IMG/VR virus record: IMGVR_UViG_3300046820_001896
DNA: 64,000 bases
DNA from: a virus
Taxonomy: Duplodnaviria > Heunggongvirae > Uroviricota > Caudoviricetes
Strand: one strand, 5' to 3'
Part shown: positions 8,104 to 50,766 of the stretch, in pieces
How the letters are laid out: each line of letters begins with the position of its first letter
Numbering within the stretch: position 1 is the first letter of the stretch
Notes under the pieces: model-generated
The model's database searches: none
The model's input: the letters and a program-made list of their open reading frames with translations, nothing else
What the model was told of the DNA's origin: nothing
Position numbers and translations under genes: made by a program

Positions 8104-8733
8104 ATGTCTTTTGATTTTGAATTTACGCAAGAAAAACTTGCACACGTTATTCCTAACGCAAAGTATGGAGTAGAAACATGGCACAAAGAATTGGTAGAAC
8201 TTTTACCAGTTTTTGAAATTACTACAGTTGGTCGTGTTGCTGCATTTGTTGCGCAAACTGCTCATGAATCTGGTGGTTATACAGCACTAAAAGAAAACTT
8301 AAACTATAGTGCTGAAGGTTTGCATAAACTATGGCCAAATCGTTTCCCAACGGTTGAGTCAGCTATGCCTTATAATCGTAATCCGCAAGCTATCGCTAAT
8401 AAAGTTTACTCATCACGTATGGGTAACGGAGATGAACATAGCGGTGAAGGTTGGTTGTATTGCGGTCGTGGTCTACTACAATTGACTGGTAAAGCAAACT
8501 ATTCTGCATTCGCACAATACGCAGGTATGTCAGTAGAAGATGCACCTGAATATATCGAATCTCCACGCGGTGCTGTACACTCAGCATGTTGGTTCTGGTA
8601 TTCAAATGACTTGAATACATACGCAGATGCTGGTGATTTCACTGGTATGACTAAGCGTATCAATGGTGGTACAATCGGTTTAGACGATCGTATCAAACAT
8701 TATAATCACGCTGTAGAGATTTTCTCAGCGTAA
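8104..8733 (+). CDS. endolysin, GH19 / chitinase-class-I-like lysozyme
   Basis: RVAAFVAQTAHESGGYTALKENLNYSAEGL ... YCGRGLLQLTGKANY is the conserved core of phage GH19-type muramidases. RBS aaggag. Confidence 0.8.
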   Translation: MSFDFEFTQEKLAHVIPNAKYGVETWHKELVELLPVFEITTVGRVAAFVAQTAHESGGYTALKENLNYSAEGLHKLWPNRFPTVESAMPYNRNPQAIANKVYSSRMGNGDEHSGEGWLYCGRGLLQLTGKANYSAFAQYAGMSVEDAPEYIESPRGAVHSACWFWYSNDLNTYADAGDFTGMTKRINGGTIGLDDRIKHYNHAVEIFSA

Positions 8734-8768: not shown

Positions 8769-9002
8769 ATGAAAAAATTAATGTTAGCATTAGCGATTAC
8801 GTTTGGTATGACTAGTGTTTATGCTGCTGATCCAAAACCAGCACCGAAATTAGATTGCACAAAACCAGCAAATAAGAGTAAAGGTCCATGTCTTAAAGCA
8901 CCTGAGTCAAAAACAAAGGTAGAGATTAAGAAACCTGAGAAAAAGAAAGCTGCACCTGCTGCAACACAAAAGAAAGCTGCAGAAAATAACGCTAAACAAT
9001 AA
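8769..9002 (+). CDS. secreted Lys/Pro-rich small protein (77 aa)
   Basis: Signal peptide MKKLMLALAITFGMTSVYA followed by a low-complexity K/P/A-rich tail. Lies directly after the endolysin. Confidence 0.6.
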   Translation: MKKLMLALAITFGMTSVYAADPKPAPKLDCTKPANKSKGPCLKAPESKTKVEIKKPEKKKAAPAATQKKAAENNAKQ

Positions 9003-9058: not shown

Positions 9059-9084
9059 AAAGGGGACGAAAGTCCCCTTTTTTT
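9059..9084. terminator. bidirectional rho-independent terminator between convergent genes
   Basis: aaaggggac-gaaa-gtccccttt with T-rich flanks on both strands. Confidence 0.8.
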
Positions 9085-9098
9085 ATGCTTACTACTAT

Positions 9099-9653
9099 TT
9101 AAATAGTAATCGGTACAACTAACCATATACCTTGTGTTAGTAATAGAAGACCTATTACACCAACACCGAGGCTTGCATAATACATTCGCATATTGACAGC
9201 GATGATAGATGCGGATAATAAAACAATGGCGAGTTGGAATAACATTCCAGAGAATGTCAACCATGGACCATGTTTACGTGCTTCTTCACGTTCAGCTTCG
9301 TATGCTCTTGCTTTAGCTAAAAGTTCTTTCTTACCTTCACCAGATACTGGATCAGATTCGTATCTTTCGATCTTTGCTTTTAGTTTATCGGCTCTCGCAT
9401 GATCGCCTCTGTCTTTAGCTGTTTCGTATTCTGCTTCAGCTAATGATTGTTTCAATGATTTAGCTTGAAAGAATCCATACGTATTAGACGCTTTTAACAA
9501 ATTAGTCATCGCTGATCCGCTAAAGCTATTAGCAAAATATGTGTTTAATGCTAAGAACAATGCCATAATGACAATCACTAAACCAGCTTTGTCTTTAATT
9601 TGTGCTTCACGTTCGCTACGTGTCAATGGTTTCTTTTCTACAACTTCAGTCAT
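9099..9653 (-). CDS. DUF4337-like membrane protein (184 aa)
   Basis: TM helix, then FFQAKSLKQSLAEAEYE, a charged coiled coil and C-terminal TM helices. This matches the DUF4337 architecture (YYQAKGIKQNLAE) recalled from memory. RBS aagga. Confidence 0.6.
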   Translation of the reverse strand: MTEVVEKKPLTRSEREAQIKDKAGLVIVIMALFLALNTYFANSFSGSAMTNLLKASNTYGFFQAKSLKQSLAEAEYETAKDRGDHARADKLKAKIERYESDPVSGEGKKELLAKARAYEAEREEARKHGPWLTFSGMLFQLAIVLLSASIIAVNMRMYYASLGVGVIGLLLLTQGIWLVVPITI

Positions 9654-10167: not shown

Positions 10168-10347
10168 TTATTTCCACACTATATGTGTGCTTTTCTTTGT
10201 TGAACTAGATTTAGCAACTGGTTTTACAGGTGCTTTTCGTTTTTGTGGTGATTGAGCCTTAGTACAATTCAATTCGTAAAGCGTATAAAGGGATAGTGCT
10301 AAGGATATCACTGAAATTACATAAGCTACAAATGGCATATAATCCAT
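10168..10347 (-). CDS. small membrane protein with basic tail (59 aa)
   Basis: In-frame Met giving MDYMPFVAYVISVISLALSLYTLY..., starting 1 nt after the stop of the 647-aa gene. The longer ORF-track version overlaps that gene. Confidence 0.5.
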   Translation of the reverse strand: MDYMPFVAYVISVISLALSLYTLYELNCTKAQSPQKRKAPVKPVAKSSSTKKSTHIVWK

Positions 10348-10348
10348 G

Positions 10349-12292
10349 TCAATCCTTTCTGTTATATTGTGAATCAACCATATCATAGTGCACTTTATCT
10401 GAAGGACCAAATAGTCCCATACTTGCACGACGATTATCAATAGTCTTTTGATTGTTGTATACTGTAAATGGTTTGTAACCTGCCACATCTGGCATTTTTA
10501 CTTGATAAGCATCAAATCCTGGAGTAAAACCCATTGCTTGGATAACTACGTTTTGAATTTGCTTTTGCTGTTCCATATCAGCAGCTTTACCCATGTTTCC
10601 AGCTAAATTTTTACCATCCTCAACTGCTTTAGCTTTTGCTGCTGCTTCACGTCTTGCTTGAAGTTCTTGGCGTGCAGTTGGTTTTGGACTATCTGAAGTT
10701 TTACTATTATTTGTTGATGCAGTTGTTGTAGATCCACCAGAAGATGCTTGTGTATTTGATGGAGCATTTTCTTTAGGTTCTTCTTTTTTGGCTGGTGCAG
10801 GTGCTGTAGCGACTGACGTAACAGAAGTTGGTGAAGATGTGCTCGTAGAACTAACTGAAGGTGTTAAACTAACAGCAGTAGTCGCTGCTGCCGCAGGAGA
10901 CGCAGATGTAGATGTTGATGTAACAACGTTATTAACAACTGGATCTGATATCACCGCTACAGGAGTTGATGATGTATTTGTATTAGATGCTACAACTACA
11001 GTTTCGGCAACAGTAGTTGTTGTCGTAGTAGTAGGTGTGTTTTGTCTTTGTAATGCTTGTTGAGTAGCATACGCTTCACCATAATTTGGGCAACGAGTAG
11101 AATACAAACCGCTTATTGTACATTGTTGACTAAAATATGCTTCTTGATATCCTGGACAATCTGTAGCATATAACGCATTGATAGAACATTGCTGTGCTTT
11201 GTAAGCTTGTTGATAACCACTACACGTTGTAGAATATAATGGATTTAATGAACATTGTAATTCTAAATAAGCTGTCGCATAACCTGGACAGTTCACAGAA
11301 TATAGTGTATTCAATGAACATTGTTGCTCGAAGTATGCTTGTTGATAACCACTACATGTTGTAGAATATAATGGATTAATAGAGCATTGTTGTTGTAAAT
11401 AAGCAGCTTGATAACCTGGACATTGTTGACTATACAATGGATTTGTAGAGCATTGTTGTGTTAAGTGTGCAGCTGCATATCCTGGACAAGATGGATCAAA
11501 TAATGCACTTATTGTACATTGTTGAGCAGTGTAAGCAACTTGATATCCTGGACATGTTGGTGATGATAATGGATTGATGATACACATGTCAACTGGACCT
11601 GTACCATTAGGTGCTTGCCAACTAAAAATACTTGCACTTCCAGGCGTAATGTTTAAACCTCGGCCGTGATAGTATTGATAATACTCACCATTTGCCAAGT
11701 TACCAGACATACCTGAAGTAACTGCATTCCATTGTACCATGGCACCAGCAATTCGTGTATCAACTAAACCAGCAGAGTTGATTTTAATCTCAAAACTATT
11801 ACCGCCTTGTGATGAACAACATTGACTTAAATTATACCAACCATATGTCATACTATTACCTTCACGCAGGTAATATTGGTTTTGGCCATTCCAAGAATAT
11901 AAATCTGTGTGTATACCAAAAATAGAGTAATTGTAACGAGGATCTGTTGTTGTTCTTAAATCAACACCTGTACAACATAATCCATAAGCACCGCTTTGCA
12001 TTGGATCTTGGAACGTTACAACGCCATTAGTCATTGCCCATGAATTATTGAACACTCTACCAAAAAATGGAAAATCAAAACCTAATGGAACATTGCGCCA
12101 ATCGTCATCAGCTGCAGTAATATTAACTGCATTTGGATTTGTGCGAATATTTTGTAAAGGTAAAGCATTAGCGCCTGTTCCAACTGTTATCGACAATCCA
12201 GGAGGAGCACCAGGAATTTGGATCGTAACAAGTTCAGCACGTGCAACAACCGTGCTTACTAATAATAGTAAGGACACAAGTAAGCGCTTCAT
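10349..12292 (-). CDS. secreted 647-aa protein: N-terminal beta-rich domain, 8 x 22-aa two-Cys repeats, Ser/Thr-rich mucin-like linker, C-terminal domain
   Basis: Signal peptide MKRLLVSLLLLVSTVVARA. Residues 237-412 are eight tandem repeats CSINPLYSTxCPGYQxAYxxQQ, followed by T7 and S/T/A/P-rich tracts. The N-terminal PLGFDFPFFGRVFNNSWAMTNGVVTF resembles the NIDO-domain core (tentative). Confidence 0.8.
   Translation of the reverse strand: MKRLLVSLLLLVSTVVARAELVTIQIPGAPPGLSITVGTGANALPLQNIRTNPNAVNITAADDDWRNVPLGFDFPFFGRVFNNSWAMTNGVVTFQDPMQSGAYGLCCTGVDLRTTTDPRYNYSIFGIHTDLYSWNGQNQYYLREGNSMTYGWYNLSQCCSSQGGNSFEIKINSAGLVDTRIAGAMVQWNAVTSGMSGNLANGEYYQYYHGRGLNITPGSASIFSWQAPNGTGPVDMCIINPLSSPTCPGYQVAYTAQQCTISALFDPSCPGYAAAHLTQQCSTNPLYSQQCPGYQAAYLQQQCSINPLYSTTCSGYQQAYFEQQCSLNTLYSVNCPGYATAYLELQCSLNPLYSTTCSGYQQAYKAQQCSINALYATDCPGYQEAYFSQQCTISGLYSTRCPNYGEAYATQQALQRQNTPTTTTTTTVAETVVVASNTNTSSTPVAVISDPVVNNVVTSTSTSASPAAAATTAVSLTPSVSSTSTSSPTSVTSVATAPAPAKKEEPKENAPSNTQASSGGSTTTASTNNSKTSDSPKPTARQELQARREAAAKAKAVEDGKNLAGNMGKAADMEQQKQIQNVVIQAMGFTPGFDAYQVKMPDVAGYKPFTVYNNQKTIDNRRASMGLFGPSDKVHYDMVDSQYNRKD
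11057..11584 (-). repeat. 8 tandem 66-nt coding repeats (22-aa C-x10-C-P-G-Y-x2-A-Y-x2-Q-Q units)
   Basis: Read directly from the translation: CIINPLSSPTCPGYQVAYTAQQ / CTISALFDPSCPGYAAAHLTQQ / CSTNPLYSQQCPGYQAAYLQQQ / CSINPLYSTTCSGYQQAYFEQQ / CSLNTLYSVNCPGYATAYLELQ / CSLNPLYSTTCSGYQQAYKAQQ / CSINALYATDCPGYQEAYFSQQ / CTISGLYSTRCPNYGEAYATQQ. Confidence 0.9.
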
Positions 12293-12768: not shown

Positions 12769-12834
12769 GGTTTTTCCTGTTTTAGTTATTATAATGAAAC
12801 CAGTGGCATTTTTTGCCACCATGACACTTATTGT

Positions 12835-12846
12835 TATTTATAAATA
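12835..12846. promoter_or_regulatory. palindromic TATTTATAAATA: back-to-back T4-type late promoter motifs in a divergent intergenic region
   Basis: TATAAATA reads on the plus strand at 12839-12846 and on the minus strand at 12835-12842, between the minus-strand cassette and the gene at 12854. Confidence 0.4.
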
Positions 12847-12853
12847 AAAGCAT

Positions 12854-13363
12854 ATGAAAACGCACATTTTAGGCAATGGTCCTTCCAATATATTATATGA
12901 ACCAAGCGATGGATACGTAATCGGTTGTAATGTACAAACCCATCCAGTTGATATATCAATTGCTGTTGATATAAAACCATTCCATTTGTACATGGCAAAT
13001 AGGATGATTTTTCAAGGTAAACCTATCATCACTTCTCAATATGCTATGGATGGAATTAAACATAAAGACATTGAGAAAGAACTAGACATCATTTATAAGT
13101 TACCTTTTTTAGAAAAATATATGAGTGCAGGTCATATCGCTGCAAAATGGGCAATTGATAATGGATACACAGAAATTCATCTATGGGGATTTGACTCAAT
13201 TTGGTCAGATAGCCAAGAAACAAAAACTGACATACTAATTCCTAGAGATAGACGGCAACACGACTTACCTATCCATTGGAGAGAAAAATGGCAACAATTT
13301 AAAACATACAACATAATCGTGCATAACACAATAGAAGGCACACAACTGAAAGACTTAATATGA
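12854..13363 (+). CDS. putative glycosyltransferase-like protein (GNGPS motif; CstII/DUF115-like)
   Basis: N-terminal HILGNGPSN and later MSAGHIAAKWAIDNGYTEIHLWGFDS parallel the IIAGNGPSL and ITSGVYMCAVAIALGYKEIYLSGIDF motifs of Campylobacter CstII-type transferases. Recalled from memory; the protein is short (169 aa). Confidence 0.4.
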   Translation: MKTHILGNGPSNILYEPSDGYVIGCNVQTHPVDISIAVDIKPFHLYMANRMIFQGKPIITSQYAMDGIKHKDIEKELDIIYKLPFLEKYMSAGHIAAKWAIDNGYTEIHLWGFDSIWSDSQETKTDILIPRDRRQHDLPIHWREKWQQFKTYNIIVHNTIEGTQLKDLI

Positions 13364-15082: not shown

Positions 15083-15259
15083 ATGATTAGACTTTGGTTG
15101 GCATTTTTCGTAATATTTTTTCTGTTTTATGTTGGTATTCCTACATTCCATAAACTCACTGGTCGTGAGAAGTGGGCTGTAACGAAGATCGCATTGTACA
15201 GTTTTGTGTGCTCTTTGCTTGCAATCGGCGCAATGATTTTGATCGTGATTTTATTTTAA
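15083..15259 (+). CDS. small two-TM membrane protein (58 aa)
   Basis: ATG at 15083 with RBS aaagg (the ORF track uses TTG at 15071). MIRLWLAFFVIFFLFYVGIP... Confidence 0.5.
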   Translation: MIRLWLAFFVIFFLFYVGIPTFHKLTGREKWAVTKIALYSFVCSLLAIGAMILIVILF

Positions 15260-15267
15260 GGATTTAT

Positions 15268-16065
15268 ATGAAGACATCTATGAAACTCTTGGCTATCGCA
15301 ATGGCCGTCGCTGCACTCCCAGCATGTACACGTATTGAGACTGGCGAAGTCGGTGTACGAGTTGGTTTCGATAAACAAGTTCAACAAGGCGAACTCTTGC
15401 CTGGTTCGTTCAATCAAGTGTTGATTGGTGATGTGCTTACATTCCCAATCAAAGATGTGAACGTTAAGCTCGAAGATATGACACCTGTTGCAAAAGACAA
15501 TAGCACAATGAAAGACTTCGATGCTGTTGTAATCTATAACATCAATCAAGCACAAGTCGCTGAGCTCTATAGCCAAAAGAGTCAAGCATTCCACGCTCGT
15601 CATAACGGCGACATCTATCTGATGTACAACTATATCGTTCAAACTACTCGTAATGCTATTTACAAAGAAGCACGTAAATACGAAGCATTAGACATGGCTG
15701 ACAATCGTCAAGCAATGGAACAAGCAATCAAAGAACAGATCCAGAAATCACTCGCTGAAGAAAAGCTTGATGGTAGTTTGATGATCGGTCAAGTGTTGAT
15801 TCGTAACATCGTTCCTGCTGATTCAGTCGTTGAGAGTGCAAACGCATTGGTTCGTGCAAAGAACGAACTAAAGCAAAAAGAAGTTGAAGTGCGTACAGCT
15901 AAAATGGAAGCTGAACGTATGCAAGCATTGTCCAATCAAGGTGCAAGTTCTATCGCATACATGAATGCTCAAGCTGCATTGAACATCTCTGAAGGTATTA
16001 AGAACGGTAAAGTGCAAACCATCGTTGTACCTAGCAACATGACTGGCTTGATGATTGGAAAATGA
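15268..16065 (+). CDS. SPFH/band-7 (prohibitin-like) domain lipoprotein
   Basis: The ATG at 15268 (RBS aagga) gives MKTSMKLLAIAMAVAALPAC with the lipobox LPAC. TGEVGVRVGFDK...PGSFNQVL and a long Ala/Glu-rich C-terminal helix are typical of SPFH proteins. Confidence 0.7.
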   Translation: MKTSMKLLAIAMAVAALPACTRIETGEVGVRVGFDKQVQQGELLPGSFNQVLIGDVLTFPIKDVNVKLEDMTPVAKDNSTMKDFDAVVIYNINQAQVAELYSQKSQAFHARHNGDIYLMYNYIVQTTRNAIYKEARKYEALDMADNRQAMEQAIKEQIQKSLAEEKLDGSLMIGQVLIRNIVPADSVVESANALVRAKNELKQKEVEVRTAKMEAERMQALSNQGASSIAYMNAQAALNISEGIKNGKVQTIVVPSNMTGLMIGK

Positions 16066-16310
16066 TGATTATTAATAAAGATACACTCCGCAAAGAACTT
16101 AAAGAAGGTGTGAAAACGATCACCTTCACTAAGACTGATGGCACTCAACGTGTATTGAAGTGCACTCTACAAGAATTTGTGTTGCCACAAGTAGATGCTA
16201 CTAAATTAGTAACTGCCAAAAAGCAGAACGATGAAGCACTTGCAGTGTGGGACATTGAGAACGCAGGGTGGAGATCATTTAGGTATGATTCAATCATCAG
16301 CGTCGTATAA
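16062..16310 (+). CDS. conserved phage small protein (82 aa)
   Basis: ATGA overlap. ITFTKTDGTQRVLKCTL...WDIENAGWRSFRYDSI resembles a common phage small-protein family (from memory). Confidence 0.6.
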   Translation: MMIINKDTLRKELKEGVKTITFTKTDGTQRVLKCTLQEFVLPQVDATKLVTAKKQNDEALAVWDIENAGWRSFRYDSIISVV

Positions 16311-17046
16311 AGCTTTTGTCATTCATAAAGAAGATCAAGAGATAAGCAGTAAACTTGCTCAGGCTTGTGTAAACACGGGTAAAAAATTTGGTATACATGT
16401 TGAGAAGGTCAATGGACTATATCAACAAACTGCACAAGAATTTTTAGCTCATCACAACCTAAGACCTTATTTAGAGAATGGCAAAGAGACTCTACTAACA
16501 AAACAATTCCCACGAAAGGGTGTTTTGGCGAGTCATTATATGATGTGGTTGAAGTGTGCAGAGTTGGACGAACCAATCATCATCTTAGAACATGATGCTT
16601 TCTTTGTTCGACCTCTGCCAGAGGTTCATGGAAAGTTTACAGACTTTCTATCGCTTGATCCTCACACGAATGATCCTACTCAAGACACAGCTGAGTCACG
16701 TGCCACTTTCATAATGAATCCTAAATTATATGGAGAAAAAGTTATGAAAGATGGACCACAGACGATCGAACGTTTCTATGGTTATGGTAATTATACAGAT
16801 GAAATTAACTTCGAGCAGTTGAGGAATAGGTTCATTCGTGGTTCTCATGGATATATCATTACACCTGATGCATGTAAAAAACTTTTTAAAGTGATTGAAG
16901 AAATTGGTTATGTTACTAGTGATGTACAACTCAATTCATTATTCATAGAGATGTACATACTACAACCAAACGTAGTGCGAGTTAATGATTTTTTCTGCAA
17001 TACTTTTAATCATCAACGATATTCACATTGTAGTACCACAGTATAA
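16285..17046 (+). CDS. glycosyltransferase family 25-like protein
   Basis: YKAFVIHKEDQEIS... start and IILEHDAFF match the GT25 pattern (VINL...R, LEDD). I prefer the ATG at 16285 over 16231, which lies deep in the upstream gene. Confidence 0.55.
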   Translation: MIQSSASYKAFVIHKEDQEISSKLAQACVNTGKKFGIHVEKVNGLYQQTAQEFLAHHNLRPYLENGKETLLTKQFPRKGVLASHYMMWLKCAELDEPIIILEHDAFFVRPLPEVHGKFTDFLSLDPHTNDPTQDTAESRATFIMNPKLYGEKVMKDGPQTIERFYGYGNYTDEINFEQLRNRFIRGSHGYIITPDACKKLFKVIEEIGYVTSDVQLNSLFIEMYILQPNVVRVNDFFCNTFNHQRYSHCSTTV

Positions 17047-33820: not shown

Positions 33821-34264
33821 TTATGTAAGTAATCTGATGCCCATGGATTTAATTGTGTCTTCAGTCCAAATAACAAATTGCCAATTACGGTCATTTGCGT
33901 AGTCTGTAGCAGCTTTCCATTTGCATTGATTTTTAACGAATGTTCTAGCTTCCTCTAAATACTTTTTGGTTTGTCTAGAAGGTTTCTTTGGAGGTAGTGT
34001 TTGAGACTTTGGTTTAATCTCTACTAGGAATGTGCCTTGGGCAGTAGTGTACTTGACATCAACAAAGTATCGATGCCATTTTTTATCTAGTGGGAGATAA
34101 TAAGGCACAACTATCTCCTCAGAACTCCATTTAAGGACCTGATCATTTGAGTCGCACCATCGAAATACTTGCATCTCCCAATGGGATCTGTAGACGACAT
34201 TCTTAAAATCGCCATCATATTTCGCAGGGTTCTTCACCCTATAAAAACCTTTGTAAGTTGCCAT
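33821..34264 (-). CDS. gp4: T4 gp4-like head completion protein
   Basis: YKGFYRVKNPAKYDGDFKNVVYRSHWEMQVFRWCD...KWSSEEIVVPY...HRYFVD...LVEIKPK parallels T4 gp4 as recalled. Diverges from a gp53 homologue as in T4. Confidence 0.65.
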   Translation of the reverse strand: MATYKGFYRVKNPAKYDGDFKNVVYRSHWEMQVFRWCDSNDQVLKWSSEEIVVPYYLPLDKKWHRYFVDVKYTTAQGTFLVEIKPKSQTLPPKKPSRQTKKYLEEARTFVKNQCKWKAATDYANDRNWQFVIWTEDTIKSMGIRLLT

Positions 34265-38423: not shown

Positions 38424-39713
38424 ATGACAAATAAAGTTTGTGGTGTAAATGCCGCTTTAGATGAAGCAAAAGCAGGAATTAATTCTTTAAAAGATAAAAT
38501 TTCTGGTGGATTAGACTCGATTGGAGATTTAGGTGGTTTAGCAACTACTATTAAAAATAAACTTGCTGAGGTAAATGTACCTCAACTTCCAACAATAAAT
38601 CTTCAAGCAGAATTAGCTAATTTACCTAAATTAACTCCTGAAGAATATGCAGCCAAAGTAGCTGAATTAAAAAAAGCTTTTGGAGATGCAGTTCCAAATT
38701 TAGATAATATTATTTCTAAAATTCCTAAACCAGCAGGCGTGGATGGAGTTGGCCAAAAAGATATTTTTGCAGATTTAAAAGCTTTAGCTGGTGATGTTGG
38801 TGCTGCTGTTAGAAAGGCACAAGAAGAACTCGCAAACTTAAGCATTGATTCTGTTGTTGCTGATGTATGTAAAGAAGTACCAAACGTAGAAGTAGTTACT
38901 ACTACTGAAACTGTTAAAATTGCTGATCCAAAAACTGGTAAAGAAACTAAAGTTGAAGTTCCTGTAACATCTCCACCAGTTGAAAAAGCAAAACCACCTA
39001 CAACACCAAAAGAAAATCCTAAAAAAGAAATACCACCTTCAGAACCTCCTGCAAAAGGTTTTACTTTTAATTTTACAAGAGAAAAATTAATTGCTGCAGG
39101 TGGAAAAGAAGCAGGACCATGGTATGATGCTATGGTAGAAATGTTGCCAAAATATAACATCACAACTCCTGAAAGAGTTGCCGCATTTATTGGTAACGTA
39201 AGAGCTGAATCTACATGGACTAAGTTGTCTGAAAATTTAAATTATGGAGCTAAGTACTTATTTGAAAGATTAAATCCTGGACGTATTCGTTTTCCAACTT
39301 ATGAGGATGCTGTTAAAGTAGAAAGAAAACCAGAACCTATTGCTAACATAATTTATATGGTTGGTCGTAAATTGCTAGATCCACAACCAGGTGATGGTTG
39401 GAAATTTAGAGGGCGTGGATTGATTGGTTTAACCTTTAAAGATGAATATTTAAGAGCTTCTAAAGCAATCTATAATGATGATAGATTGGTACAAAATCCA
39501 GATTTAGTTGCAACTGATAGAACTACAGCAATCTTAACTGCATGTTATTTCTTTAAACGCAATAATATGAATCCATGGGCAGATAAACAAGATTGGGGAA
39601 ATTGTAGAAGTATCGTTAATGCTGGTTCTCCTGGTAAAGATCCTAAAATTATTCACGGATATGAGTCTGGAGTAAAATTTCAACAAGATGCATATAACGT
39701 TCTGAAAGGTTAA
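38424..39713 (+). CDS. tail-associated lysin: coiled/Pro-Lys linker plus C-terminal GH19-type muramidase domain
   Basis: C-terminal ERVAAFIGNVRAESTWTKLSENLNYGAKYL...FRGRGLIGLTFKDEY is paralogous to the endolysin at 8104-8733. The linker is VTSPPVEKAKPPTTPKENPKKEIPPSEPP. Confidence 0.75.
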   Translation: MTNKVCGVNAALDEAKAGINSLKDKISGGLDSIGDLGGLATTIKNKLAEVNVPQLPTINLQAELANLPKLTPEEYAAKVAELKKAFGDAVPNLDNIISKIPKPAGVDGVGQKDIFADLKALAGDVGAAVRKAQEELANLSIDSVVADVCKEVPNVEVVTTTETVKIADPKTGKETKVEVPVTSPPVEKAKPPTTPKENPKKEIPPSEPPAKGFTFNFTREKLIAAGGKEAGPWYDAMVEMLPKYNITTPERVAAFIGNVRAESTWTKLSENLNYGAKYLFERLNPGRIRFPTYEDAVKVERKPEPIANIIYMVGRKLLDPQPGDGWKFRGRGLIGLTFKDEYLRASKAIYNDDRLVQNPDLVATDRTTAILTACYFFKRNNMNPWADKQDWGNCRSIVNAGSPGKDPKIIHGYESGVKFQQDAYNVLKG

Positions 39714-44409: not shown

Positions 44410-47400
44410 ATGTCACTGAAGATTTTTTCACAAGCTCCTTACAACGATGACTACGATGAAACGAAGAAATATCTTCGTATGTTGTTTCGTCCAGGAGTTT
44501 CATTACAGGTACGAGAGTTAAATCAGCTACAAACTTATCTGCAAACTCAAATTCAGCGTTTAGGTTTACATTTATTTAAAGAAGGCTCAATGGTCATTCC
44601 AGGTCAAACTGCGATTGACACAAAAATTGTATATTTAAAAATTCAACCTGAAACAAACGGCGTTGAAATTAGTACTATTCTTGCAGATTTGGTTGGTAAG
44701 ACTATTACCGGTGCTAGCGGTGTACAAGCTCAGGTTCTTACATACGCTGCAGAAGAAGATACAGATCCTATTACATTATTCGTGCGTTATGTTGCATCTT
44801 CTGATGATGAAGAAACAAAAACATTTTCTGCCGAAGAATTATTAACTACTACTATCGATAGTGAAGAATACACATTACAAATTCTTCCATCGACTGATAC
44901 TCCAGTTGGTTTTGGTTCTATTGCATCTATCGAAGCTGGTGTTTATTTTATTAAGAGTCAATTTGTACAAGTTGATTCTGCTACAATCATTCTTTCTAAA
45001 TATAGCAATACACCGACATATCGAGTTGGTTTATTGGCAACAGAAAACATTGTAACATCTAATTCTGATGCTTCACTAAATGACAACGCCAATGGTTCTC
45101 CAAATGAGAATGCTCCTGGTGCTCATCGTTACCAATTATTATTAACATTTGCAAAATTAGCAGTTGATTCAGAATTAGACGAAAACTTTATTGAATTACT
45201 TCGTATTGAAAATGGTGAACTAAAGAGTAAAGTAGAAACATCTACATATTCTGAACTTGCTAAAACATTAGCACGTCGTACATTTGACGAATCTGGTAAC
45301 TATACAGTTCGTCCATTCAAATTAGCAATTCGCGAACATCGTAATAACGATCGCGGGCAATGGCAAGCATTTACTGAATATCGTTTAGGTGACATTGTAA
45401 AGAGCGGTGATAATTATTTCACAGCTATGGAAACTGCTACGTCTGGTAGTATCGAACCAGCTACTACTTTCTCTGAAACAAATCCATATCAAATCTATTC
45501 AGATAATAACATGGATTGGAACTATACTCCACGACCATCGTTTAATCGTGGTTACAAAACACCAGAAAACGGTGGTTCAGAATCTTCATTTGCAGTTGCT
45601 ATTGAACCTGGTAAAGGTTATGTACAAGGTTATGAAATCGAGAAGATTGCTACTGAATTCTTAGAAGTTCCTAAGTCAAGAGAATTTGCACGCATTGATA
45701 GTGATTCAATCGATATCAAGTACGGAAACTATGTTTATGTTTCTAACGTACGTGGTGTACCTGATTGCACAACATATCCAACAATCACTTTATACGATCA
45801 ATTAACTCCATCAACAAATTCTCAAGCTTCTGGTGCAGGTAATGCGATTGGTACCGCTCGTCTTCGTGCATTCGAATATGATTCAGGTACTCCTGGTGCA
45901 TCTGCAGTTTATAAAGCATATTTGTTCGACCTTCAAATGGAAGCTGGTTATACATTTGAACGTGATGTTAAACAATTCTTTTATGATTCAGGAACAACAT
46001 TAAGCAACTTCGTTGCAGATGTTTCACAAATTTATACTACATTAAGCGGTACAGTTAGCGGATCATCTACAACTGTTACAGGCGTTGGTACAAAGTTTAC
46101 AACTGAATTAAAAGTTGGAGATTATATTCGTGTTGAAGATTCTGCTGGAGCATTAGAAGTTCGCAGAGTTACTTCAATCACAAATAACACAACACTTGCT
46201 ATTGCTTCTGCTTTTAGCGGTACAGTTACTGGTAAAACATTTCAACGTGTGATGACACAAGTGCAAGATCCAAGTTTCACTGGATTGATTTTCCCTCTTG
46301 CACAATCATTTATTCGCAAAGTTCGTGGTGGTGAAAATGATGCTACATTTGCAACATCATACACAACTACACAAAAATTCACAGGTTCTACTTCATCAGG
46401 TCAATCAACACTGACAATTTCAGTTGGTGCTGCATCTGGTGCAACAACTCTTGGTACAGAATTTAATCCTTCAGCAAATAAAAATGAATTCGTTGTAATT
46501 AATAGATCAACTGGACGTCCAGTTAATCCAACTGCAATTAATTTATTAAATAATGGCGCGGATGCACAAATTACTGGTTTAAGTCAATCTTCTTCATATA
46601 CTGTATTTGCTCCAGTTCGTAAAGCTGGCACAATTGCACAAGAAAAGAAGAAAACACTTGTAAGCAATGCAGTAAAAGACTTCACTTCTATTGGTGCAGT
46701 TCAACCATTAACATTGTCTCTTGGTAAAGCTGACGGCTATCGCATTGTTGCTATTCGCATGAAGAATAGCGGATTCACTGCATCATCTAATCCAACTGAA
46801 ACTACTGATATTACTGATTGGTACACATTTGATAATGGTCAACGTGAAACACACTATGATGTAGCTACAATCACACGTAAACCTGGATATCCAGTTCCAA
46901 AGGGTGCTGTTCGTGTAATTTTTGATTATTTCGATCACACAGCTGGTACTGCCGGTGACTACTTTACAGTAGACTCATATTCAGATATTCCATTTGAAAA
47001 TATTCCATACTTCACGCCTGCTGGTGGCATGATTGCTCTTGCTGATGTTATGGATTTCCGTCCACGTATTAATGATGTTGGTACAGGTTATAGTAGCACA
47101 GGTGCTTCTCCATCAGAGTTGCCAAAACTTGGATTTGAAACAATTGCAAGTTACTCACACTATCTTGCACGTCGCGATAAATTAGCATTAGATATCGAAG
47201 GCAGATTCTTTACAATTTCTGGTGTAGCAAGTACTGCTCCGCAAGAACCAAAAGATCCAGCTCTTGGAATGATGTTAGCTAAGTTAAATGTTTCTCCATA
47301 CACAGCTTTCCCAAGCGATGGTTCTGTTACAATTGAAACTATCGATACTAAACGTTACACAATGCGTGATATCGGTAAGTTAGATAAGCGTATCGAAAAC

Positions 47401-50400
47401 TTAGAATACTACACAGCGCTTTCATTGTTAGAAAACGAAACAAAATCTCTTGCAATTAAAGACGATGTTGGCTTAGAACGTTTCAAAAATGGTTTCATTG
47501 TCGATAATTTCAAAGGTCAAGACTTAGGTGACGTAGCTTCTATTGACTATCGTTGCTCTATCGATATGACTGCACAAGAATTACGTCCATTTTACACAAT
47601 GGATAACGTAAACCTTGTTGAAGAAAACCAGATTAATGCTGATAGAACTTCTGACGGTTACCAATTGACAGGCGATATCATCACATTGCCATATACACAC
47701 TTTAAGTTTATCACTCAACCATTTGCGTCACGCACTGAGAACGTTAACCCATTTGCGGTGTTTACATTCTTAGGTCAAATGTCATTGAATCCACCATCTG
47801 ATGATTGGTTTGAAACAGATCGTCGTCCAGATATTATTACAAACGTAGAAGGTAACTTCTCTGCTGTACAAACACAACTTGAAAAACAAGGTGTTCTTGG
47901 CACAGTGTGGAATGCATGGCAAACAACATGGACAGGTCAAACACGTAATATTGATCGCTTAGTTGTTTCACGTGGCTTCGATAGTACAAACTATGGTCTT
48001 GGCGCTGGTCGTTGGATGGATCGTCGTACATTTACTGCTGCTGAACTTCGTGCTATTGGTGGTGATGCTCCATCATTTGGTAATGGTGCTGCTGGTGCTC
48101 GTGTATTGACATTCCAAACACAAGCTACAACAATTGGACAATCACGTTCAGGTATCACAACATCTGTTGTTCCTAAGGTAGACTATGAAGTTGTTGGAGA
48201 TAAAGTTCTTCAAACTTCTGTTATTCCTTACATTCGTGCACGTGAATTATTATTTGTTTGCCGTGGTTTAAAACCTAACACTAAATTAAATCCATTCTTT
48301 GATGATGCATCTATTCAAGCATATGTAACTCCTGCTACTCGTCTTCCAATTACTCAAAATGGTTCATTAGAATTCGATACAGAAACTAATGCTGGTGCGG
48401 CAGCAAATGACATTGGTCGTCAAGTTGGTGGTAAACCAGAAGTATCATTCAACAAGGGTGATGTTGTGTATGTTAAAACGCGTGGTGGTACAACATACAA
48501 CTCACAAGTAACATCGCCAGCTCGTGGTGTTGCAGTGTTGAAAGAAAAAACTACTGACACTGGTGCAGAAGCTGTTTATGTTCTAAACGTAACTGGTACT
48601 TTCCAAGGTGGAGACGTTATCAAAGGTTCTCTATCAGGTGCTGAATATATTATTCAAGGATCTGGTTCAATTGCTACTGCAACTCAAGGTTCAAACTTAG
48701 TAACTAACTTTAACGGTAACTTAGCTGGTGTATTCTCAATTCCAAATACAGATAGCATGCGCTTCCGTACAGGTGTTCGTGAATTTAAGTTAAGCGATAG
48801 CGTAACTGGTGGTAACGATTTTACAACACAAGGTCGTGGCACATATCGTGCTCAAGGTACATTAGAAACTAAACAGCGTTCTGTTAATGCTGTGCGTAAC
48901 TCTGAAATTGTTACACGTCCTGCATCAGAAACACGTACACAAGAGATCTTCTCTCCTGAACGTATCGTACGTGATACTGGTTGGTATGACCCTCTTGCCC
49001 AAACTATTATGATTGGTTCTAAGGGCGGTGCATTCTTAACTAAAGTTGATATCTTCTTCTCTACTAAAGATGCAAACATTCCAGTTAACTTACAAATTCG
49101 TGAATCTGTAAACGGTTACCCAGGTCCAGGTATTCTACCTTTCTCTAAGGTTACATTAAACCCAGATCAAATCATAACATCTAATGATGCATCTTTAGCA
49201 ACTACATTTACATTTGAATCTCCAGTTTATGTTCAAGACGAGACTGAATACTGTATCGTTCTTCTATCTGATTCAAACAACTATCGTGTTTGGATTTCAC
49301 AACTTGGTGAAAAAAATATTGGTACAGATCGTTTCATCTCTGAACAACCATACGCAGGTGTATTGTTTAAATCACAAAACGCTTCTACATGGACTGCTAA
49401 CCAAGAACAAGATTTGAAGTTCACAGTATATCGTGCTGAGTTTAATACAAACACAGAAGGCGTGGCTACATTCACTAATGATATCCTTCCTCCTGCTGTA
49501 TTAGATGGAAATCCATTTAAGACAACACTAGATTCGTCTAAGGTTCGTGTATCACATCGTAATCACGGCATGCCAGCAGGTTCAACAGTAATCATTTCTA
49601 ACGTTGCAGATGGAGACTATAACGGTATCGTTACAACATCTACTTCTGGTCTAAACGGTGAATTCATTATTAGCAACCCAGAACCAGATTCATATGTTAT
49701 CGATACTGGTACTGATGCTGATGCAACTGGTTTTGTTGGTGGTACAGATGTGGTTGTTTCTGAGAACGTTCCAATGGATGCTGCTCAGTTAATTACTCAA
49801 TCACAAACATTCTCTGACACAACATTATCATATGAAATGTTGACAACAGATTTATCATATAATCTTGCGACTGAAGCAACTAGCGTAATTCCAAATGAAA
49901 CAGTATACTTTGGCACATCTCAACAAGTTGCTTCTGCTATTAACGAAGAAACTGCTACTCCATTAAATGGTTCAAAGTCATTGAAAGTTATTGCAAGATT
50001 GAATACAGATAATTCTGCATTATCTCCAATCATTGATACTTCACGCTTATCAGTTGCAACAATCAAAAACCGTGTTGATAATTTCACATACGCTACTAAG
50101 AACGTTGCAGGTTTAGATGATATCATCGTAGCAGATGCAATTTCTGGTTTCACTTTCGATTCTGGAAGCCCTGGTACAATCTTTGTTCCAAGTACAGCAA
50201 GATCTGCGGTGCGTTCTATCACAGTTGGAAAATATGTTTCTGTAAGTGGTACAACAAGCAATAACACAACAATTCCTGTGTTAGTCACAGCAGTTGCAGC
50301 AAATGGTTCATCAATCACGACTAATTATGCTGGATTTACAACAGAATCTCCAGCAAATACTACTATCACATTGAAAGATAATTTCATCGATGAAAGTGTA

Positions 50401-50766
50401 CCAATTGGTGGTTCTGCGACATCTAAGTACTTAACTCGTTTAATTAACTTAGAACAACCTTCAACGTTCTTGAAAGTTATGTTCGCAGCAAACATTCCTG
50501 CGGTCACTGATTCAGACATTGAAGTTTGGTACAAGTTAATCCCAACTGGTACAAACGGTGATATCTCTCAACATTCATTTGTGCGTGCTACAACTCCTCT
50601 TAAGAACGTTAAGAGAACATCTAACCCAGACGAGTTCGTAGATGTACAATACGATTTGACAGATCTTCCAGCATTTGATGGTGTTGTTGTTAAGTTAGTA
50701 TTTAAGTCTGGCAATAGTGCTCAACCTCCACGCGTTAAAGAGTTGAGAGTAATTGCTTGTGCATAA
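44410..50766 (+). CDS. giant virion structural protein (2118 aa; DUF4815-like N-terminus, probable baseplate/fibre component)
   Basis: Single uninterrupted ORF. The N-terminal YDETKKYLRMLFRPGVSLQVRELNQLQ resembles the conserved start of large marine-myovirus structural proteins (from memory). Confidence 0.8.
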   Translation: MSLKIFSQAPYNDDYDETKKYLRMLFRPGVSLQVRELNQLQTYLQTQIQRLGLHLFKEGSMVIPGQTAIDTKIVYLKIQPETNGVEISTILADLVGKTITGASGVQAQVLTYAAEEDTDPITLFVRYVASSDDEETKTFSAEELLTTTIDSEEYTLQILPSTDTPVGFGSIASIEAGVYFIKSQFVQVDSATIILSKYSNTPTYRVGLLATENIVTSNSDASLNDNANGSPNENAPGAHRYQLLLTFAKLAVDSELDENFIELLRIENGELKSKVETSTYSELAKTLARRTFDESGNYTVRPFKLAIREHRNNDRGQWQAFTEYRLGDIVKSGDNYFTAMETATSGSIEPATTFSETNPYQIYSDNNMDWNYTPRPSFNRGYKTPENGGSESSFAVAIEPGKGYVQGYEIEKIATEFLEVPKSREFARIDSDSIDIKYGNYVYVSNVRGVPDCTTYPTITLYDQLTPSTNSQASGAGNAIGTARLRAFEYDSGTPGASAVYKAYLFDLQMEAGYTFERDVKQFFYDSGTTLSNFVADVSQIYTTLSGTVSGSSTTVTGVGTKFTTELKVGDYIRVEDSAGALEVRRVTSITNNTTLAIASAFSGTVTGKTFQRVMTQVQDPSFTGLIFPLAQSFIRKVRGGENDATFATSYTTTQKFTGSTSSGQSTLTISVGAASGATTLGTEFNPSANKNEFVVINRSTGRPVNPTAINLLNNGADAQITGLSQSSSYTVFAPVRKAGTIAQEKKKTLVSNAVKDFTSIGAVQPLTLSLGKADGYRIVAIRMKNSGFTASSNPTETTDITDWYTFDNGQRETHYDVATITRKPGYPVPKGAVRVIFDYFDHTAGTAGDYFTVDSYSDIPFENIPYFTPAGGMIALADVMDFRPRINDVGTGYSSTGASPSELPKLGFETIASYSHYLARRDKLALDIEGRFFTISGVASTAPQEPKDPALGMMLAKLNVSPYTAFPSDGSVTIETIDTKRYTMRDIGKLDKRIENLEYYTALSLLENETKSLAIKDDVGLERFKNGFIVDNFKGQDLGDVASIDYRCSIDMTAQELRPFYTMDNVNLVEENQINADRTSDGYQLTGDIITLPYTHFKFITQPFASRTENVNPFAVFTFLGQMSLNPPSDDWFETDRRPDIITNVEGNFSAVQTQLEKQGVLGTVWNAWQTTWTGQTRNIDRLVVSRGFDSTNYGLGAGRWMDRRTFTAAELRAIGGDAPSFGNGAAGARVLTFQTQATTIGQSRSGITTSVVPKVDYEVVGDKVLQTSVIPYIRARELLFVCRGLKPNTKLNPFFDDASIQAYVTPATRLPITQNGSLEFDTETNAGAAANDIGRQVGGKPEVSFNKGDVVYVKTRGGTTYNSQVTSPARGVAVLKEKTTDTGAEAVYVLNVTGTFQGGDVIKGSLSGAEYIIQGSGSIATATQGSNLVTNFNGNLAGVFSIPNTDSMRFRTGVREFKLSDSVTGGNDFTTQGRGTYRAQGTLETKQRSVNAVRNSEIVTRPASETRTQEIFSPERIVRDTGWYDPLAQTIMIGSKGGAFLTKVDIFFSTKDANIPVNLQIRESVNGYPGPGILPFSKVTLNPDQIITSNDASLATTFTFESPVYVQDETEYCIVLLSDSNNYRVWISQLGEKNIGTDRFISEQPYAGVLFKSQNASTWTANQEQDLKFTVYRAEFNTNTEGVATFTNDILPPAVLDGNPFKTTLDSSKVRVSHRNHGMPAGSTVIISNVADGDYNGIVTTSTSGLNGEFIISNPEPDSYVIDTGTDADATGFVGGTDVVVSENVPMDAAQLITQSQTFSDTTLSYEMLTTDLSYNLATEATSVIPNETVYFGTSQQVASAINEETATPLNGSKSLKVIARLNTDNSALSPIIDTSRLSVATIKNRVDNFTYATKNVAGLDDIIVADAISGFTFDSGSPGTIFVPSTARSAVRSITVGKYVSVSGTTSNNTTIPVLVTAVAANGSSITTNYAGFTTESPANTTITLKDNFIDESVPIGGSATSKYLTRLINLEQPSTFLKVMFAANIPAVTDSDIEVWYKLIPTGTNGDISQHSFVRATTPLKNVKRTSNPDEFVDVQYDLTDLPAFDGVVVKLVFKSGNSAQPPRVKELRVIACA

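Follow-up and report, generated by a model that had tools for sequence, protein, structure and literature searches.

An array of eight 22-residue, two-cysteine repeats in an exported modular protein of a T4-like phage, encoded within a conserved operon of envelope proteins

We analysed a 64,000-nucleotide (nt) stretch of viral DNA (IMG/VR record IMGVR_UViG_3300046820_001896, hereafter the window) that encodes, on its minus strand, a 647-amino-acid (aa) protein carrying eight tandem copies of a 22-residue unit with two cysteines. The window is that of a T4-like myovirus, with homologs of T4 gp5, gp6, gp8, gp25, gp32, and gp59, in agreement with a preliminary description, made from the sequence alone, in which the gene was held to be phage-encoded. 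From its N-terminus, the protein is made of a signal peptide, a beta-sandwich head, the Cys-repeat array, a disordered linker rich in Ser, Thr, Pro, and Ala (S/T/P/A), and a conserved C-terminal domain (Table 1). Its gene is the second of a conserved operon with tight gene spacing. We conclude that the eight units form a true and conserved array of repeats, part of a phage protein that is modular and exported. A point that the preliminary description had missed is that the repeat rod is best read as an interchangeable spacer within a conserved multi-gene envelope module.

Table 1. Features of the target protein, of its operon, and of the flanking genes (positions in the window)
Feature	Position	Strand	Basis or remark
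Target open reading frame (ORF), 647 aa plus stop	10349..12292	-	ORF call; 100% identical protein P0001; at least 2,849 homologs
Signal peptide, aa 1-19, MKRLLVSLLLLVSTVVARA then ELV	12236..12292	-	Read from sequence
N-terminal beta-sandwich head, aa 20-236	11585..12235	-	Predicted; FPFFG...TNGVVTF...HTDLY motifs
Eight tandem 22-aa units, aa 237-412	11057..11584	-	C-x9-C-x-x-Y pattern, AlphaFold2, family alignment
Low-complexity T7 and S/T/P/A "mucin-like" linker, aa 413-537	10682..11056	-	Predicted local distance difference test (pLDDT) score, low identity
Conserved C-terminal domain, aa 538-647, ...QNVVIQAMGFTPGFDAY...YKPFTVY..Q..DN...H.DMVDSQY	10352..10681	-	Identity among homologs 65%
Secreted 4-Cys protein, 157 aa	12295..12768	-	Signal peptide, S/T-rich and SPPPTAVAP segment, homologs
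TATAAATA, T4 late-promoter consensus	12835..12842	-	67 nt upstream of the ATG of the small gene
Single-transmembrane ORF, 59 aa, basic tail	10168..10347	-	Sequence read; begins 1 nt past the target stop codon
Type-II membrane coiled-coil protein, 164 aa	9664..10158	-	Cytoplasmic N-terminus, one transmembrane segment, ...ALDNPLAGK end
DUF4337 membrane protein, 184 aa, last operon gene	9099..9653	-	Pfam PF14235, E 1.4e-30
Bidirectional terminator-like hairpin AAAGGGGAC-GAAA-GTCCCCTTT, closes the operon	9059..9080	.	
GH19 endolysin-like gene, free-standing	8104-8733	+	phrog_181, E 4e-78
Secreted Pro/Lys-rich protein, 77 aa, two Cys, no lipobox	8769-9002	+	Follows the GH19 gene

The pattern C-x9-C-x-x-Y occurs in the target at residues 237, 259, 281, 303, 325, 347, 369, and 391, that is, with a step of exactly 22. 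This count bore out the eight head-to-tail units over residues 237–412 that had been described previously, but it corrected the distance between the two cysteines, which had been given as C-x10-C and is C-x9-C, the cysteines standing at positions 1 and 11 of the unit (C1 and C11). Shuffling the protein 20,000 times gave in-register C-x9-C runs of 2 at most, as compared with the 8 observed. The unit consensus is C-S-[IL]-N-P-L-Y-S-x-x-C-P-G-Y-x-x-A-Y-x-x-Q-Q, and C1, L6, C11, Y14, A17, and Q22 are unchanged across all eight units. The earlier list of invariant positions was therefore right for C1, C11, Y14, A17, and Q22, whereas it omitted L6 and wrongly included G13, which is N in unit 8. The Y at position 18 of the earlier consensus is not invariant either, as unit 2 has H there.

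At the DNA level, the units are 52–82% identical in pairwise comparisons, and 34% of the codon pairs that encode the same residue in two units use differing codons. Tandem Repeats Finder returned a period of 66 with a 70% match and a period of 132 with an 80% match, and units 4 and 6 share 82% DNA identity. Taken together, these unit identities, synonymous differences, and periods indicate that the array is old overall and includes one younger two-unit duplication (units 4 and 6). Among 60 homologs, mean pairwise identity was 74% for the head, 70% for the repeats, 37% for the linker, and 65% for the C-terminal domain. The first, second, and last units hold their own position-specific signatures across these 60 homologs, and the variation in unit number falls on the internal units. 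The proposal that the array is old and under selection thus finds support both in the conservation of the repeats relative to the linker and in the synonymous codon differences. As for the statement that it does not stem from recent slippage, it holds for the array overall, the duplication of units 4 and 6 being younger.

An AlphaFold2 model of the target was built with 60 homologs. Over aa 237–412, the pLDDT was above 90 and the repeats formed a regular helix–loop pattern, each unit being made of a 12-residue helix, from Y14 to position 3 (I3) of the next unit, and a 10-residue Pro-containing loop, that is, unit residues 4–13, including P5, C11, and P12. DSSP assigned no beta strand to the modelled repeats. 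The head (aa ~20–230) was beta-rich, with block pLDDT values mostly of 75–94 and dips to the low 60s, and the C-terminal domain was helical and weakly modelled. A further helix was predicted at residues 2–16, within the signal peptide. The T7 stretch (aa 421–427) and the S/T/P/A tract do follow the array, as noted earlier, and with a pLDDT < 50 over aa 418–537 this linker was read as disordered.

Cysteine pairing was approached by bookkeeping in 259 arrays from 270 family proteins, with a total of 1,767 in-register units. Both cysteines were present in 1,767/1,767 units. In 215/259 cases C1 was the first cysteine of the array, the 14 residues before it being free of Cys, and in 232/259 the array ended at C11; isolated single units were also seen. 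Pairing of C11 of one unit with C1 of the next would therefore leave two unpaired cysteines per array, whereas C1–C11 pairing inside each unit leaves none. We infer that each unit contains one C1–C11 disulfide, formed in the oxidising periplasm and closing the Pro-containing loop, and that the array would be a rigid solenoid-like stalk whose length is tuned by unit number (5–16 in close homologs). The preliminary description had spoken of a disulfide-stapled rod that projects a domain from the cell or virion surface. The regular and confidently predicted repeat structure and the two invariant cysteines per unit agree with such a rod, the staple and the rod shape being what we would deduce from them. 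In contrast, projection from the virion surface was judged unlikely, because of the cleavable signal peptide and because the operon encodes two other envelope-targeted proteins. The periplasm or cell envelope is the better-supported location.

Homologs of the target number at least 2,849 at 90% clustering, every one labelled hypothetical, and fall into 701 clusters at 50% identity. The target shows the features by which the family is defined, namely a signal peptide, at least one Cx9C 22-aa unit, the QNVVIQAMGF...YKP..Y..Q..DN...H..MV..QY domain, and an adjoining 4-Cys small protein. Its signal peptide, recognised by eye from a basic N-terminus, a hydrophobic core, and A-x-A, is of the Sec type and supports the secretion proposed previously; nearly all family members have a signal peptide, and the same type of start was found in nearly all of 150 family representatives. 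The C-terminal domain was recovered in about half of these 150, several being fragments. The head core of the target is common to 87/150 representatives; some add an extra N-terminal domain, and the remaining ones have a different head, beginning ...TPNLITN...; some family proteins carry two heads. Unit number varies from 1 to 16 across the family. A single Cx9C unit (e.g., DPCVSNPQSSPSCPGYRTYY) lies directly upstream of the head core in members that have the extra N-terminal domain (e.g., P0132 and P0142–P0144) and in some fragments, P0218 and P0225 being further examples, and there it appears to be a stand-alone inter-domain connector. Between related loci, the large protein is 40–76% identical and its partners 59–92%, the large protein evolving much faster than they do.

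The search among metagenomic phage proteins that had been suggested in the preliminary description yielded relatives at 191 IMG/VR loci, on contigs of up to about 175 kb. In contrast, scanning 185,579 GTDB species turned up a single locus, with patterns that favour close relatives and could miss distant bacterial members. This locus, which carries the same phage trio of genes, lies on a 14-kb contig (JBBARF010000095.1; L003) of a Bacteriovoracaceae metagenome-assembled genome, and it is most likely a phage contig that was mis-binned. Megablast and tblastn searches of GenBank phages with the whole protein or its C-terminal domain gave no match, and literature searches on pelagiphage spanins, pelagiphage signal peptides, and DUF4337 turned up nothing on the target family.

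Searches of the target against Pfam (E ≤ 1), NCBIfam, PADLOC, and PDB sequences gave no family match, PHROGs returned a single insignificant one (E 0.45), and a PDB sequence search found nothing for the protein or for the head profile. The repeat, which had not been recognised in the preliminary description, thus matches nothing significantly in Pfam, NCBIfam, PDB sequences, or PHROGs. As judged from sequence, it belongs to no described family, and it occurs in thousands of phage proteins.

We compared the array with three kinds of known repeat. Leucine-rich repeat (LRR) and similar solenoid stalks, for example those of internalins, resemble it in several respects: its 22-residue period is in the LRR range, it is part of a modular binding protein, and each unit consists of a helix and a loop, with N/S conserved at position 4 and aliphatic or aromatic residues conserved in the core. 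A Foldseek search of BFVD with the full-length model aligned phage "leucine rich repeat" proteins over ~210–270 columns (E 4e-3 to 2e-2, probability 0.96–0.97) with a TM-score of at most 0.25, and searches of the PDB gave no match. However, the two invariant cysteines imply a disulfide in each repeat, which is not an LRR feature, and the array has no beta strand. At the sequence level, the array did not qualify as an LRR, as the consensus has no LxxLxLxxN/CxL motif and no Pfam LRR model matched at E ≤ 1. The twin Cx9C (CHCH) proteins of the mitochondrial intermembrane space share with the array the C-x9-C spacing and folding in an oxidising compartment. In CHCH proteins, however, the Cx9C motifs are helical and disulfides join two such helices, whereas in the array Cx9C is a Pro-containing loop in 1–16 tandem units. 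The CHCH fold was rejected because the Cx9C segment is a loop and because single units and odd unit numbers are found; the two have no more than the number of residues in common. Curlin (CsgA/CsgB) repeats are Cys-free beta-strand units of about 19–23 aa with the motif S-x5-Q-x-G-x-G-N-x-A-x3-Q. They were considered because related pelagimyophages encode CsgGF (PMC9004378), and were rejected, the phage units being predicted helical, with two Cys each and no Pfam match.

The head contains FDFPFFG...TNGVVTF at aa 72–94, the motif in which the preliminary description had tentatively seen the core of a NIDO domain. NIDO domains (nidogen, MUC4, TECTA) and the head do share DD.., FxF(Y/F)G, TNGvvsF, (I)APlW(T/A)DL, and NTF..(E)I in the same order, and both are extracellular or exported and adjoin mucin-like tracts. 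Statistics did not support membership, however. The Pfam NIDO model (PF06119, gathering score 25 bits) matched neither the target nor 27 diverse family heads at E ≤ 1, and the same Pfam library recognised nidogen-1, used as a positive control, at E 2.6e-61. Alignment of the head profile with the single NIDO sequence of nidogen-1 by hhalign covered 100 columns with a probability of 0.5% and E 0.12, and searches of the PDB returned no NIDO entry. The resemblance is a lead, not membership. The head also has two vicinal Cys pairs, C106–C107 and C158–C159.

We compared gene neighbours in 83 related loci and the promoter motif in 77. The small 4-Cys protein adjoins the target in 80/83 loci. Its gene precedes that of the target with a 2-nt gap, and its open frame continues upstream as far as another possible ATG, at 12822. 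The protein has 4,686 homologs and matches phrog_20531 (E 6e-16); its 4-Cys domain is almost invariant in the homolog alignment, and its AlphaFold2 model is of low confidence (pLDDT 47). The transmembrane (TM) coiled-coil protein is present in 72/83 loci. It has, by a reading of its sequence, one hydrophobic segment (aa ~37–57) followed by heptad-rich sequence; the length of the coiled coil varies while the ends are conserved, and the C-terminal ...ALDNPLAGK motif is invariant. Family libraries gave generic coiled-coil matches only, and no similarity to Rz families. Two tandem paralogs of this protein, both ending ...ALDNPLS/A, were seen in L032–L035, L037, L041, L053, L065, L068, L069, and L075, and in some of these loci the target and the TM gene are separated by a gene for a ~260-aa protein that has a TM segment at its C-terminus (MDPLTLFALANGAVSA...). 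In many loci, the slot between the target and the coiled-coil gene holds diverse small TM ORFs, related or not; the 59-aa ORF of the window has a homolog 78% identical in one related locus (L004). DUF4337 is near the module in 15/83 loci. All products of the operon are thus predicted to be targeted to the envelope.

On the other side of the hairpin, the GH19 gene and the gene for the 77-aa protein converge on the operon. The window also encodes a baseplate-region protein (38424–39713) with a second, fused GH19 domain. Two envelope-related accessory genes lie a few kb from the operon, both on the plus strand, one for an SPFH/Band-7 membrane protein (15172–16065) and one for a family-25 glycosyltransferase (16231–17046).

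Upstream of the small gene stands TATAAATA, which occurs 8 times in the whole window against 7.8 expected, that is, not above chance. Within 150 nt upstream of the small gene, however, it was found in 20/77 related loci as compared with 0.5% of background windows, and only this enrichment and its position carry weight. The same motif lies just upstream of baseplate genes at 34264 and 43032. A palindromic TTTATTTATAAATAA at 12835–12846 puts TATAAATA on both strands, in a 31-nt divergent gap between the upstream open frame of the operon (ATG 12822) and a plus-strand ORF at 12854; TTTATTTATAAATAA may be a bidirectional late promoter.

Which host the phage infects was approached through its relatives. 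The gp6 homolog of the window was closest, at 40–42% identity, to those of Methylophilales phage Melnitz and Pelagibacter phages HTVC008M and Mosig. Six cultured Pelagibacter phages of differing morphotypes encode proteins that are 55–65% identical to the small 4-Cys protein. This resemblance is the best, if indirect, clue and points to a host that is probably a SAR11-type bacterium. The window further contains 12 tRNA genes on the plus strand at 53–2891 (Met, Thr x2, Pro, Gly x2, Leu, Arg, Ile(tat), Trp, Lys, and His), among which the Ile-tat gene is unusually long (95 nt, 1207–1301). Of 72 window ORFs scanned, one matched Pfam Tad3 (type I Thoeris inhibitor; E 2.7e-36), and the giant product of a plus-strand ORF of 2,118 aa at 44410–50766, directly after the baseplate wedge genes, is presumably part of the baseplate or a fibre.

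Cultured relatives of the module were found only via the small partner and the TM protein. All three proteins have homologs in HTVC115P, where the genes stand in the same order: gp54 (small, 65% identity), gp53 (large), and gp49 (TM, 40% identity, E 4e-27). The C-terminal domain of the target is homologous to the C-terminus of gp53 (BLASTP E 2e-7; hhalign probability 95%, E 3e-8), whereas the part of gp53 that joins its head to this domain is a long acidic linker devoid of Cys repeats. An acidic linker stands at the stalk position also in HTVC202P gp25. More generally, the large proteins of the cultured phages differ from the target in having other heads, a long acidic linker, no Cys repeats, and no S/T/P/A tract. 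Because cultured versions use an acidic linker, the Cys-repeat stalk with its mucin-like tract can be seen as one spacer variant. In the HTVC115P locus (L085, 4380–4460), gp54 as annotated ends ...IIPMVITALAFGVAF, and the annotated gp53 begins at a GTG with VSPSKAE...; put together, the two read like one signal peptide (compare Mosig ...FLISPSKAQ), so that the gp53 start may be mis-annotated or a frameshift may lie at the junction.

Mosig 00202–00200 and gp24–26 of the siphovirus HTVC202P are trios in the same gene order, in which only the small protein matches at the sequence level. BLASTP gave no significant alignment of Mosig_00201 and Mosig_00200 with the C-terminal domain of the target and the TM protein, respectively, and hhalign of Mosig_00201 against the C-terminal domain, the sole domain run, detected nothing. 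These two proteins were accordingly rejected as homologs and are treated as analogous, by synteny only. The large and TM proteins of HTVC202P were compared by eye, on topology and a C-terminal KNPLG motif. In its 32-kb genome, the trio lies directly upstream of the terminase gene, and the head of the large protein has a weak CBM_4_9 match (E 0.02). The trio proteins of HTVC115P, Mosig, and HTVC202P are all annotated as hypothetical.

The known systems closest to the module are spanins (lambda Rz/Rz1; T4 PseT.3/PseT.2) and the lysis cassettes of phages. The TM protein would resemble an i-spanin in its type-II topology in the inner membrane, its periplasmic coiled coil, and its conserved C-terminal tip, and its partners are predicted to be exported and disulfide-rich. 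The module also has in common with lysis cassettes a late-promoter motif, an admixture of small TM ORFs, and, in the window, an endolysin-like neighbour. On the other hand, it has neither a lipobox nor an outer-membrane lipoprotein partner: the small protein and the target have A-x-A type sites followed by Q/E/D, with no lipobox Cys. Moreover, one partner is a modular protein of 450–900 aa with a swappable head, and to our knowledge no such large partner of spanins has been described. None of the module proteins showed sequence similarity to spanin or holin families.

With a probability that we put at about 0.5, the array is a rigid-spacer variant in a late-made envelope complex that acts at lysis or release, its role being speculative. 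The exported protein would be oxidised in the periplasm, where C1–C11 disulfides would close each loop and yield the solenoid-like stalk. The latter would be one interchangeable solution to a spacer requirement, of a length set by unit number, and would hold a variable, probably glycan-binding, head away from the C-terminal domain, which in turn would dock the protein to its conserved partners at the inner membrane. The complex would be made late in infection and would be part of a spanin-like or holin-associated apparatus working at the lysis or release step. The grounds for favouring this step are circumstantial: a late-promoter motif ahead of the operon, a partner that resembles an i-spanin, small TM ORFs of holin-like character, an endolysin-like gene next to the operon, and an analogous trio that a small genome has kept.

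Several observations speak against a role of this kind. The target has no homology to any protein of known function, and no partner is a lipoprotein; canonical o-spanins are. The exact TATAAATA was lacking within 150 nt upstream in 57/77 related loci, and GH19 is near the module in just 10/83. In HTVC202P, the M15 endolysin and four small ORFs sit elsewhere from the trio, which is therefore not obviously the lysis cassette of that phage. The number of stalk units did not covary with coiled-coil length (rho −0.19, p 0.14), which gives no support to a complex of fixed span; with either stalk units or linker length set against TM coiled-coil length, rho ranged from −0.19 to +0.19 (p > 0.06, uncorrected for phylogeny). 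The disulfide geometry and the rod shape are themselves inferred rather than seen in coordinates. Lastly, swapped carbohydrate-binding-like heads and a fast-evolving large protein fit an arms race better than housekeeping lysis.

The main rival is superinfection exclusion or receptor masking, which we consider unlikely. Here, the variable glycan-binding-like head would bind or occlude a host envelope structure, which could be a phage receptor, its periplasmic precursor, or the receptor on debris of lysed cells, and would thereby block competing phages or protect progeny, with the stalk and linker giving reach and the partners the anchor. Such a role would suit heads that are swapped between family members and sometimes doubled, the weak CBM_4_9 match in HTVC202P, the faster evolution of the large protein relative to its partners and that of the mucin-like linker, and the phage-specific distribution of the family. 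Yet the exclusion genes known so far, among them imm and sp of T4, are expressed early, whereas the operon bears a late-promoter motif. In addition, a Sec signal by itself does not deliver a protein to the outer surface, PADLOC defence models gave no match beyond coiled-coil noise, and an analogous trio is kept in a siphovirus genome of 32 kb, which points to a core role and not to an accessory one.

A second rival, which we hold to be quite improbable, is that the protein is a virion-associated or released adhesin, which would be oxidised in the periplasm, freed at lysis, and would then decorate virions or act as an extracellular fibre-like adhesin. Its head–stalk–linker–anchor layout does resemble that of surface adhesins, the BFVD matches to phage LRR proteins, marginal as they are, go in the same direction, and the late-promoter motif is common to the structural genes at 34264 and 43032. 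However, T4-like virions assemble in the cytoplasm, and we know of no structural protein in that lineage that needs a Sec signal. The obligate partners include an inner-membrane protein, no PHROG structural family is similar to the target, and the gene lies outside the baseplate/tail block at 34–51 kb. Finally, it is very unlikely that the array is a tolerated low-complexity slippage expansion, devoid of structural role in a gene of marginal function, since, for all the wide variation in unit number, the younger-looking block (period 132; units 4 and 6), and the members that manage with an acidic linker, both cysteines are always kept, the repeats are as conserved as folded domains and confidently modelled, same-residue codons often differ synonymously, and the first, second, and last units keep their identities across homologs.

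If the favoured role at lysis or release is taken one step further, the operon might encode an unrecognised envelope-spanning apparatus, common to myo-, podo-, and siphoviruses of SAR11-type bacteria, that carries out or controls outer-membrane disruption and release, in hosts whose phages have no recognisable spanins. It would comprise the 4-Cys protein, the head–stalk–anchor protein, the coiled-coil protein with its NPLAG tip, and the small TM proteins, and its reach would be set by the array, as a disulfide-stapled solenoid of a new class. We offer this wider proposal as a doubtful one.

A tandem-repeat stalk in a modular secreted protein is of a familiar kind, while the repeat itself and the surrounding operon are undescribed. 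If the C1–C11 staple holds true, the unit would also offer a compact element from which to build rigid spacers of tunable length, whether periplasmic or extracellular. SAR11 and its freshwater relatives rank with the most abundant bacteria known, and the target module bears on how their phages breach or manipulate the envelope. The modules of cultured Pelagibacter phages make this piece of metagenomic "dark matter" testable in existing phage–host pairs.

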